Source: Candidatus Bathyarchaeota archaeon
GTDB taxonomy: Archaea > Thermoproteota > Bathyarchaeia > 40CM-2-53-6
Direction: 5' to 3'
Assembly: GCA_005883075.1 (NCBI GenBank)
Contig: VBAX01000050.1
Location: 3,226 to 64,462, forward strand
DNA: 61,237 bases
The translations under genes and the position numbers were made by a program. Positions 40,346-44,824 of this stretch are shown here, in pieces (positions within the stretch are counted from its first letter, which is position 1; each line of letters starts with the position of its first letter). Below the pieces are notes generated by a model. It was not told the DNA's origin. It saw only the letters and a program-made list of their open reading frames with translations, and made no database searches.

Positions 40346-40597
40346 TTACCAACCACACCCCTATACATTGATCCTTCAGCTCGGATCGTACAGAATCTAT
40401 TAGGGATCGCGCGGAGTCCCTTTCTTCTCGCGCTTCAAGAGGGGCCAAAGCGGCGACTTTCAAGCTCTCAACTCACAACAAACTGTCGTCCGGGATGTTC
40501 CCTGCAAGAGGCGGATGCTCGACCACTCTTGGTTCTCTCCATATCCAAACTCAACGAAACCTATTATGGCTAGTCAAAGAGCAACCGAGAACTTCGT

Positions 40598-40738
40598 AGC
40601 CCGGTGGTGTAGTGGTCTAGCATAGCATGGGCGTTTCGGGCCAGAAACACGGAAGCGTCCCTAGTCGGCTCTGGATCCCCTCGAACAGAGGGTTGGAGCA
40701 ACCTGCTGACGGGAGTTCGAATCTCCCCCGGGCTACCA
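40598..40738 (+). tRNA. tRNA-Gln(CUG) with two introns (29/30 at 40628-40666; 37/38 at 40675-40700) and encoded CCA
   Basis: Removing both introns gives a 76-nt cloverleaf: AGCCCGG/CCGGGCT acceptor (A1-U72), GCAGG/CCTGC anticodon stem with CTCTGGA loop, and GGGAG-TTCGAAT-CTCCC T arm. Confidence 0.93.
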
Positions 40739-42736: not shown

Positions 42737-42788
42737 GCGTTCAATTTATTGGATGTATGCCAATGGTCCAGTTTATTGGAGACCTATT

Positions 42789-43184: not shown

Positions 43185-43420
43185 CGGGCAATTTCGCCTT
43201 TCGTTTAATCCTTATGGTTGCTGAAGAATCTGTAAGCTGAGAGAAAAAGATGGATTGTTGGCTGAGAGATTTCTAACGTAACTTCTTCGATGAATCACGC
43301 CTAACTTGTCCCCCTATATCCTTGCGTAACTTCCTGAGAATAGGCGAACCTTTCGATTCTTCGCAGTTTGCCTTCATCGTTTCGGAGGATTTTCTCCGCC
43401 ACCTAGGAGCTTTGTGTGGG

Positions 43421-44047
43421 TTAGGACTCGTCCAGGAGCTGTTTCTTCTCTTCGAGGGAGAGTTCTTCAACATACACGGCCGTCGCCCTCAAGTCTTTAT
43501 GTCCCATGAGACTCTGGACTTTCCAAGGGTCCCTACCGGTCTTTCTAGCCCAGAATGTCCCGAAATAGGCACGTTGACGGTGATTGTGGAGACGATCCCA
43601 GTCGGGAACACCCGCGAGTTTTGCATATTTTCGCAGGATGTTTGTTCCATGTTGTTCTGAGAGAGAGATAATCCTCTCGCCCATCTGAGCCTTTGAGGCG
43701 AGTTTCTGAGCAAGTCTAAGCCACTTCCTCCCAGGATAATCGGGTTCTGTTTTTCCTCCTTTGAAGTGAATCATTATTGTCTCCTCACCCACGTCCTCTT
43801 TCCTTATTCCCGGAAGATCCACGATACACACAACCCTCTCCCCGGTCCTCTTCCTTGTGTAGGTTACCTTGTTATGGCAACCCACAATGCTCCCGATGCG
43901 CCATCCGCGCTCGAGTTGGAGCCCTAAGAGAAGGTGATCTCGAGGAACTGCCTGGGCCAACTCGATCATGCGATTCTTTTGAGAGTCTGATATTCGTGTC
44001 TCGCCTCGTCCGTCTCTACTTATTCGCATCTGAGAACTCGCCAGCAA
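43421..44047 (-). CDS. Tyrosine recombinase/integrase, catalytic domain only (about 202-208 aa)
   Basis: R (GWRIGSI), K (KGGK), H-x-x-R (HRQR), H (LMGH) and Y (TAVY) appear in order. Confidence 0.9.
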   Translation of the reverse strand: MLASSQMRISRDGRGETRISDSQKNRMIELAQAVPRDHLLLGLQLERGWRIGSIVGCHNKVTYTRKRTGERVVCIVDLPGIRKEDVGEETIMIHFKGGKTEPDYPGRKWLRLAQKLASKAQMGERIISLSEQHGTNILRKYAKLAGVPDWDRLHNHRQRAYFGTFWARKTGRDPWKVQSLMGHKDLRATAVYVEELSLEEKKQLLDES

Positions 44048-44163
44048 CTGTTTTTCTTTCCCTCATCTCCCCAATGTACCCCCAATTCCTAAATTCTCCC
44101 ATGTGTTCCAAAAAGCCTCAACGTTTTCGTGCCCTATCCGGGTATTGGTAGCGGTGAGATAAG

Positions 44164-44191
44164 ACTTGCTAAAACTGCACTTTTAGCAAAT
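44164..44191. other. dif/att-like 11-6-11 inverted repeat, putative recombinase site
   Basis: ACTTGCTAAAA-CTGCAC-TTTTAGCAAAT; arms match 10/11 and the inner 9 bp are perfect. Confidence 0.6.
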
Positions 44192-44316
44192 ACTCGTGCG
44201 CATTAGTAGCATTGGGCAAATGGAATTCAAGAGCGCAATCCTTCTTTCCACCACCACTCCCTCGGTCTGGAGCCTAGACCTACACGCTCCTTCTCTGGCC
44301 ATTGTCCGCGGCTTAG

Positions 44317-44357
44317 TCCAATTTTTTGGAGGATTGATGAACCTCCAAAATTTTGGA
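44317..44357. repeat. 16-bp imperfect inverted repeat (hairpin)
   Basis: TCCAATTTTTTGGAGG-9 nt-CCTCCAAAATTTTGGA, 14/16 paired; lies just 3' of the gene ending at 44381. Confidence 0.6.
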
Positions 44358-44380
44358 TCGTCAAATAATTTGGGCTCGGA

Positions 44381-44824
44381 TTATGTTGTATAGCGCGGTT
44401 CGGATTTCTTTTGTCCTTGCTGTTGCTGCGCCTGCATTTGCTCTGGAGGCAAACCCATGGGTGGAAGTGGTGGCGGAATTCCCAGACTTTTTGACAATAG
44501 AATTGCCTCAGCCATAGCAATGCTCGACACCGCCTGGATTATCGCGACAGGGGGAGGCCTGTTTTGTTTGTGCTCATCTATCATCCTAGAGACCTCTTCT
44601 TTTTCGCCGAACACCTGGGCCCGACCTTTGACACTGAGCTGTGCGACCGATGGATTATAATTCACCGTGAAAACAAAGGGAGCATCGGCAGTGGACTCGC
44701 TCTTCAAATCCAATCCGACAATATTGATATTAACGGCAATCTGGACCTGGGGCGGTAATTGTGATTCATAGCCCCAGAAACGTTCGCCTGTCAGGTTTGT
44801 GATCTGTACGGTCACCCTTAGCAT
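44381..44824 (-). CDS. Conserved-looking archaeal hypothetical protein (possibly SecB-like beta-sheet fold)
   Basis: Alternating beta strands followed by a helix and a GIPPPLPP motif; fold call is weak. Confidence 0.7.
   Translation of the reverse strand: MLRVTVQITNLTGERFWGYESQLPPQVQIAVNINIVGLDLKSESTADAPFVFTVNYNPSVAQLSVKGRAQVFGEKEEVSRMIDEHKQNRPPPVAIIQAVSSIAMAEAILLSKSLGIPPPLPPMGLPPEQMQAQQQQGQKKSEPRYTT

Follow-up and report, generated by a model that had tools for sequence, protein, structure and literature searches.

A catalytic-domain-only tyrosine recombinase and its single-copy palindromic site at a locus of swappable cassettes in soil Bathyarchaeia

The window analysed here, by which the whole stretch of 61,237 nucleotides is meant, comes from a metagenome-assembled genome of soil Bathyarchaeia (87.6% complete, 1.9 Mb). 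At 43421..44029 on the reverse strand it carries the gene for a mini tyrosine recombinase of 202 aa, called type A below, which consists of the catalytic domain only. The open reading frame had been called at 43421..44047 on the same strand, giving 208 aa from a TTG codon at 44047; the N-terminus of the orthologs, MRISRDG, assigns the start to the ATG at 44029. The frame is open from stop to stop for 213 codons only, and the next upstream gene starts at 44381, which leaves no room for an N-terminal domain missed through a wrong start or a frameshift. The sole Pfam domain of the protein, PF00589 (Phage_integrase), covers the catalytic domain alone. In an alignment of 32 family members reaching down to 31% identity, R44, K90, H150, R153, H177 and Y186 are invariant, and the start positions of all members agree within a few residues. 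Alignment with XerD confirmed the catalytic residues of the 202-aa protein, that is, the R-K-H-R-H pentad and the Tyr nucleophile. Of the solved sequences, XerD (E 1e-3) and XerA of P. abyssi (E 0.09) are the closest. An AlphaFold2 model (pLDDT 82) predicts a bare catalytic domain with no extra domain, and its best Foldseek matches are XerD, the XerA proteins of T. acidophilum and P. abyssi and the catalytic core of lambda Int; the SPbeta repressor YopR/MrpR is also among the structural matches. The first-pass annotation had described a catalytic-domain-only tyrosine recombinase with the full residue set, and the span of PF00589, the invariant residues, the model and the closed frame bear this out.

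Textbook tyrosine recombinases clamp DNA between a core-binding domain and a catalytic domain. In a profile search against 1.8 billion representative proteins, 41 clusters fell below 1e-30, nearly all of them 180-260 aa long. The recombinase is not a truncation but belongs to a genuine family whose members lack the core-binding domain. The type A gene is under strong purifying selection (median dN/dS = 0.048, as low as in neighbouring genes). It is the only match to PF00589 in the source genome, so that the separate full-length xerA for which a search had been suggested is absent from this assembly.

Upstream of the gene lies a palindromic site with the core ACTTGCTAAAA-CTGCAC-TTTTAGCAAAT (44164..44191, 28 bp), whose two 11-bp arms, inverted around a 6-bp spacer, agree at 10/11 positions. 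Its distance from the TTG is 117 nt and from the ATG 135 nt; the earlier reading of the sequence had placed an inverted-arm site about 120-140 bp upstream. About 0.7 repeats of the 11-6-11 form are expected per 61-kb window and two were found, so the palindrome alone is not beyond chance. The 28-bp site occurs once in the 1.9-Mb genome. Seven other genomes of the same genus likewise hold a single copy, always upstream of the gene, and approximately 72 soil-metagenome contigs carry both site and gene, with the site upstream and the orientation of arms and flanks constant. In its single copy, its length of 28 bp and its 11-bp inverted arms around a spacer of 6 bp, the site conforms to Xer/dif sites. 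The copy number and the co-conservation of site and gene, both of which the first-pass annotation had named as points to check, came out in favour of a paired system, and it is well supported that the palindrome is a co-inherited, single-copy partner of the recombinase gene.

The distance from site to start codon ranges from 23 to about 340 nt across relatives, because a small HNH endonuclease gene lies in between and is intact in some and decayed or deleted in others. In the source genome a remnant of it is found at 44041..44125 on the reverse strand; in three genomes (G011, G007, G013) and one metagenome contig (L228) the HNH gene is intact and runs into the recombinase start. The earlier statement that no tRNA or phage genes flank the recombinase holds for the immediate flanks, to which this decayed HNH gene between site and recombinase has to be added. 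On the gene-distal side the site is bordered by a conserved flank (44192..44228) with the motif CATTAGTAG, which reads ACTAATG on the gene strand and also precedes or overlaps the sites of two other recombinase types described below (type B and type E, respectively).

Orthologs with 83-93% amino-acid identity occupy the same neighbourhood in at least 11 genomes of the genus. The conserved order runs from carbamate kinase through a methyltransferase, DUF4382, dCTP deaminase, HD, an AbrB-like gene and a 154-aa ORF to the recombinase, and continues beyond it with an AF_0843-like gene, a cytidylyltransferase and a rhomboid gene. Both flanks are thus in conserved synteny, and the orientation of the recombinase is unchanged in all relatives. 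ARAGORN and Rfam searches of the window returned no tRNA or other match. Elsewhere in the window, the stretch 40551-40738 has an identity of 88-95% across the genus, much higher than that of the adjoining sequence, and neither ARAGORN nor Rfam (gathering thresholds) reports anything there.

The AF_0843-family gene (PF27297; 42789..43184, reverse strand) adjoins the recombinase and is highly conserved. Throughout this archaeal family, the AF_0843-like gene is always immediately downstream of the recombinase cassette. The model of its product has weak but uniform Foldseek matches to ArsR, MarR, GntR and IclR domains, and a winged-helix protein is predicted. Two palindromic boxes of the form CTCCAAWWWWTTGGAG, 27 bp apart, lie at 44316..44358, and a third, degenerate box of the same form is found just 3' of the AF_0843-like gene (42766..42781); in the source genome such boxes are confined to this locus. 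In almost all types and genera examined (three genera; L023-L044, L064-L067, L097), the cassette ends distally at the double box. In the L097 lineage, which has no recombinase, it stands about 260 bp upstream of the AF_0843-like gene, and because the double box persists where the recombinase is missing, the boxes belong with the AF_0843-like gene. The CTCCAAWWWWTTGGAG box is probably the operator of the winged-helix AF_0843-like protein; that this protein also assists the recombinases is speculation. AF_0843-like genes of 51-63% identity were also observed amid many small ORFs on two virus- or plasmid-like contigs (L094, L096), with no recombinase within 3.5 kb of them.

The stretch between these two landmarks is replaceable. 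Nucleotide homology to another genome of the genus (G005) stops at 44317 and at 43333, which delimits a cassette of 43334..44316. The genomes of the genus without a type A ortholog hold a different mini recombinase at exactly the same locus, 28-31% identical to type A, and the genes around the swapped recombinases are 50-98% identical. Each type has its own inverted arms of 10-12 bp and its own spacer of 6-7 bp just upstream. The type B site, in G005, is ATGTCGGAATCT-CTATAT-AGAATCCGACAT; the type C site (G004, G006, G009) is GTTTGCTTTC-N7-GAAAGCAAAC; and the type E site (G016, G018, G019, G021) is a perfect palindrome, TTAGTCTTTC-TGTAATG-GAAAGACTAA. Types C and E are single-copy and confined to this locus. 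The type E module consists of a 250-aa mini recombinase and a GIY-YIG nuclease-like gene, inserted divergently (L032 8368-9572 in G021). In two sister genera (g2 and g4; L064-L067) the same position upstream of the AF_0843-like gene is taken by type D, a full-length enzyme of about 340-360 aa, whose site CCGAAMGTAT-CATAGA-ATACRTTCGG is accompanied by a third, direct arm, as in FRT; the type D gene of G024 is frameshifted. A further lineage (P0060) has a recombinase 42% identical to type A in the same synteny, with the related site ATTTTACAAAA-GTGCTA-TTTTGACAACT.

The locus is therefore a hot spot of swappable cassettes, and since each type of recombinase has its own single-copy palindrome, what is swapped is the recombinase together with its site. 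In three genera, all genomes with a recovered locus have a recombinase there, and the types are interchangeable. The locus types A, A2, B/C and E fall into different clades of the family tree, which interleaves copies from the locus with members in virus- or plasmid-like contexts; hence recombinases have entered the locus on several occasions, drawn from a pool that it has in common with mobile elements. The surroundings of the cassette were searched for a second site or half-sites forming an attL/attR pair, and none consistent was found. A search for a similar palindrome beside the mobile-element-borne homologs also found none.

The four genomes with the type E module contain no type A site at up to three mismatches. 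The type E module stands where the full site stood, and an apparent right half-site is retained. An intact type A gene is kept in three of them (G016, G018, G021) and was partly recovered in the fourth (G019), where it runs off the contig end. For the pair G016-G018 the dN/dS of the type A gene is 0.048 despite the missing site.

Mobile DNA is found inserted in the type A site of some relatives. In three metagenome assemblies a 4.6-kb element sits in the site (L178 99-4663, L228 3546-8106, and L229). L178 has two copies of the core 4.6 kb apart, one of which borders the recombinase-proximal and the other the distal chromosome, and the same insert recurs in L229 and L228, assembled from other samples. 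L228 (9.7 kb) shows the full context: cytidylyltransferase, AF_0843-like gene, type A recombinase and intact HNH gene, followed by a site copy, the element, the second site copy, a homolog of the 154-aa ORF, the AbrB-like gene and HD. Read along the gene strand, the junctions have the sequences ATTTGCTAAAA-CTGCAC-TTTTATTTTCT and GTTGCTAAAA-CTGCAC-TTTTAGCAAGT, that is, they are hybrid copies of the site. When the element and one site copy were removed in silico, the sequence became collinear with an empty-site contig (L149), with 98.4% identity over 2,080 nt. The attP inferred from the junctions, GTGTTGCTAAAA-CTGCAC-TTTTATTTTCTT, has 20 bp in common with attB and keeps one good arm and the spacer; its second arm is degenerate. 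Because the element is flanked by two hybrid copies of the site in which it sits, the crossover occurs within the site, which thus undergoes recombination in nature.

The element encodes orphan proteins, an RHS-repeat fragment and one endonuclease VII, and no integrase or replication gene was recognisable in it. It is absent from 22 genomes of the genus and from IMG/VR, and scans of IMG/VR for the type A site and for the inferred attP gave no match. A scan with the type C pattern gave two, on unrelated low-GC contigs, which were taken as chance. In another contig (L136 1-406) a second, unrelated piece of DNA meets the distal flank of the chromosome precisely at the site, with TTAGCTAAAA as the left arm where CTTGCTAAAA is usual; this may be the end of another inserted element.

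The spacer (44175-44180) occurs in two states. Among 72 gene-linked sites (L112-L191) it reads CTGCAC in 59 and GTGCAG in the other 13, and the one-step intermediates GTGCAC and CTGCAG were found in none. On the gene tree the state has changed at least six times (6-7) independently, in some cases between sequences that differ by less than 1% and have identical flanks. Given the missing intermediates and the repeated independent changes, point mutation was rejected as the source of the two states, and the change is a concerted micro-inversion of the palindrome centre. The spacers of types C and D are also flipped between relatives. Hairpin template switching, which is known for small plastid hairpin loops, is one possible route; another would be an antiparallel exchange that the recombinase carries out, the site (S-TGCA-S) being nearly symmetric.

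The module was compared with known recombination systems. The archaeal XerA/dif system of Pyrococcus and Thermoplasma resembles it in structure, XerA being second to XerD among the structural matches (5hxy, 4a8e), in the 11-6-11 geometry of the site and in having no FtsK partner (PMC2958812, PMC8371274). However, XerA has about 280 aa with a core-binding and a catalytic domain, whereas the type A protein has 202 aa in a closed frame and the catalytic fold only. The XerA family model (NCBIfam NF040815) scored 34.1 bits against a cut-off of 220, over model positions 124-253 only, and no match in the genus reached that cut-off. By both score and architecture the type A protein is not a member of the XerA family. 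Furthermore, the Thermococcales dif is not adjacent to xerA, whereas the type A site adjoins its gene.

The placement of the site beside its gene is that of the single-recombinase Xer modules, as had been noted on first inspection. XerS/difSL of streptococci, the xerA/dif modules of some archaea (PMC5357621) and XerL/dif of Legionella, which was discovered through the mobile element LME-1 that mimics the site (PMC9765430), likewise have one recombinase and one single-copy chromosomal site beside its gene, with inverted arms and a short asymmetric spacer. These modules, too, are exploited by integrase-less elements with one good and one degenerate arm (PMC5357621, PMC9765430). They differ from type A in the core-binding domain, which type A lacks (the XerS model scored 12 bits against a cut-off of 267); moreover, the type A arms (TTGCTAAAA) do not resemble the dif ATAA/TTAT core, the type A module has been swapped for unrelated types within one genus, and no terminus signal was seen. 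The 4.6-kb insert in turn resembles the IMEX elements (CTX-phi, TLC-phi, GGI, LME-1), which carry no integrase, are flanked by hybrid host sites and have an attP with one degenerate arm; in L178, L228 and L229, set against the matching empty site of L149, the same combination was found. Unlike those elements, it sits in an archaeal host whose enzyme has no core-binding domain, its genes are almost all orphans, and it is known from integrated copies.

Enzymes of the FimB/FimE type have about 200 aa and are essentially a catalytic domain, and they illustrate that a core-binding domain can be dispensable for a recombinase working together with accessory DNA-binding proteins. The NCBIfam model of such invertases, NF007371, has 198 positions, close to the size of the type A protein. 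FimB/FimE act on two inverted repeats and invert the segment that these enclose, whereas the type A site is present once per genome, and the type A protein scored 12.3 bits against the cut-off of 222 for this model.

We consider it somewhat probable that gene and palindrome together constitute a resident module for site-specific recombination in the chromosome, of the single-recombinase Xer/dif-like kind, which an integrase-less element exploits. The 202-aa recombinase would most likely occupy the two 11-bp arms of the site as a dimer, and strands would be exchanged at the edges of the 6-bp spacer. The adjacent mini recombinase would then be the catalyst of the element's insertion, and the element would use the module as bacterial IMEX elements use XerCD/dif. 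Since the sites abut or overlap likely promoters, binding of the recombinase may also autoregulate its own gene.

What the module does for the cell is a more tentative matter. A Xer/dif-like resolution of chromosome multimers is plausible, and we give it somewhat less than an even chance. In two 250-kb contigs of relatives (G007:C40 and G006:C25, not closed genomes), GC skew, AT skew and ORF strand bias have no turning point at the locus, and 4-5-mers with a strand bias flipping at the site in both contigs were no more frequent than at random breakpoints. In archaea such skews are often weak. PF00589 has no match in six genomes of the same order with a completeness of 95-100% (G025, G030, G033, G034, G039, G063), which means that a Xer function is not obligatory in the order; a near-complete archaeal genome without any such match is unusual. 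Canonical XerA-like genes are patchy throughout the family, and their complementarity with the recombinase of the locus is not clear-cut. That the type A gene remains under selection in relatives without the type A site also speaks against a plain dif interpretation, and the mixture of locus copies and mobile-element copies in the family tree tells against the resident module as a whole.

The main rival explanation is that of an orphan or domesticated integrase module without a housekeeping role, a virus- or plasmid-derived cassette of recombinase and att site that serves as a semi-selfish landing pad for mobile DNA. Such a cassette would be lodged between the double operator box and the AF_0843-like gene, would have been replaced repeatedly, and would be helped in spreading by the homing endonucleases (HNH, GIY-YIG). 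The origin of the locus types from different clades fits this, as do the virus- or plasmid-like gene neighbourhoods of the closest non-orthologous relatives, the exchange of cassettes between genomes with flanking genes of 80-98% identity and the HNH and GIY-YIG genes within them. The AF_0843-like genes on mobile-element-like contigs, the existence of an "empty" arrangement with the boxes next to the AF_0843-like gene, and the many relatives that manage without a tyrosine recombinase point the same way. We nevertheless regard this explanation as rather unlikely, because a recombinase occupies every recovered locus in three genera and is under purifying selection as strong as that on its neighbours, because one full site per cassette and no attL/attR pair around it is found, and because the gene is the sole tyrosine recombinase in several good genomes.

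It is improbable that the palindrome is only an operator, to which a recombinase-fold regulator like YopR/MrpR would bind and autoregulate, with the insertion of the element catalysed by something else. The sites do lie at or beside likely promoters: as read from the sequence, type B has TATATA in its spacer about 28 nt before the start codon and the type C site is followed by a TATA-like box, and the type E site lies between divergent operons. YopR/MrpR is among the structural matches, and the gene is still selected where the full type A site has been lost. However, the six catalytic residues, including the Tyr nucleophile, are invariant across clades that are 30% identical, and the 11-6-11 geometry together with hybrid sites whose crossover falls inside the core are marks of tyrosine recombinase products, found here with an element that has no recognisable integrase of its own. 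With the catalytic residues conserved and the junctions being hybrid sites, this reading is less likely than a domesticated cassette.

The first-pass annotation had mentioned an inversion system as one option and an int(C) fragment as a possible objection. Either reading, that of a FimB/FimE-like invertase for phase variation or that of a truncated int(C) pseudogene remaining after a suicidal integration of the SSV type, agrees with the length of about 200 aa, the lone catalytic domain and a weak match to NF007371 (E 0.087), but is hardly credible given a single site per genome with no inverted partner, a gene orientation that is constant in all relatives, family-wide conserved N-termini, uniform length, a dN/dS of about 0.05, synteny on both flanks, no tRNA in the window by ARAGORN and hence no tRNA-borne att site adjoining the gene, and no int(N) piece.

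Beyond the resident module that we favour, a wider reading may be considered, according to which the locus represents a novel archaeal class of swappable dif/Xer-like cassettes built on recombinases without a core-binding domain, with the AF_0843-like protein, the IMEX-like entry and the spacer footprint as its parts. The winged-helix AF_0843 protein would bind the double box CTCCAAWWWWTTGGAG and supply a DNA-binding or architectural function in trans, the cassettes would let in IMEX-like elements, the first to be seen in archaea, and the recurrent flipping of the spacer would be the footprint of a recombinase acting on a nearly symmetric site. As a whole this reading is doubtful.

The recombinase and its 28-bp site make a very small pair for testing, and the locus offers the case of a recombination module exchanged like an allele at one position. 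If the proposed explanation is true, a conserved family that has no core-binding domain, but a DNA site that natural insertions show to be recombinationally active, would widen the view of the minimal requirements for tyrosine recombinase chemistry. The insertions at the site would be the first case of mobile elements parasitising a host recombinase in archaea, and the module would be a candidate for chromosome multimer resolution in soil Bathyarchaeia without XerA.
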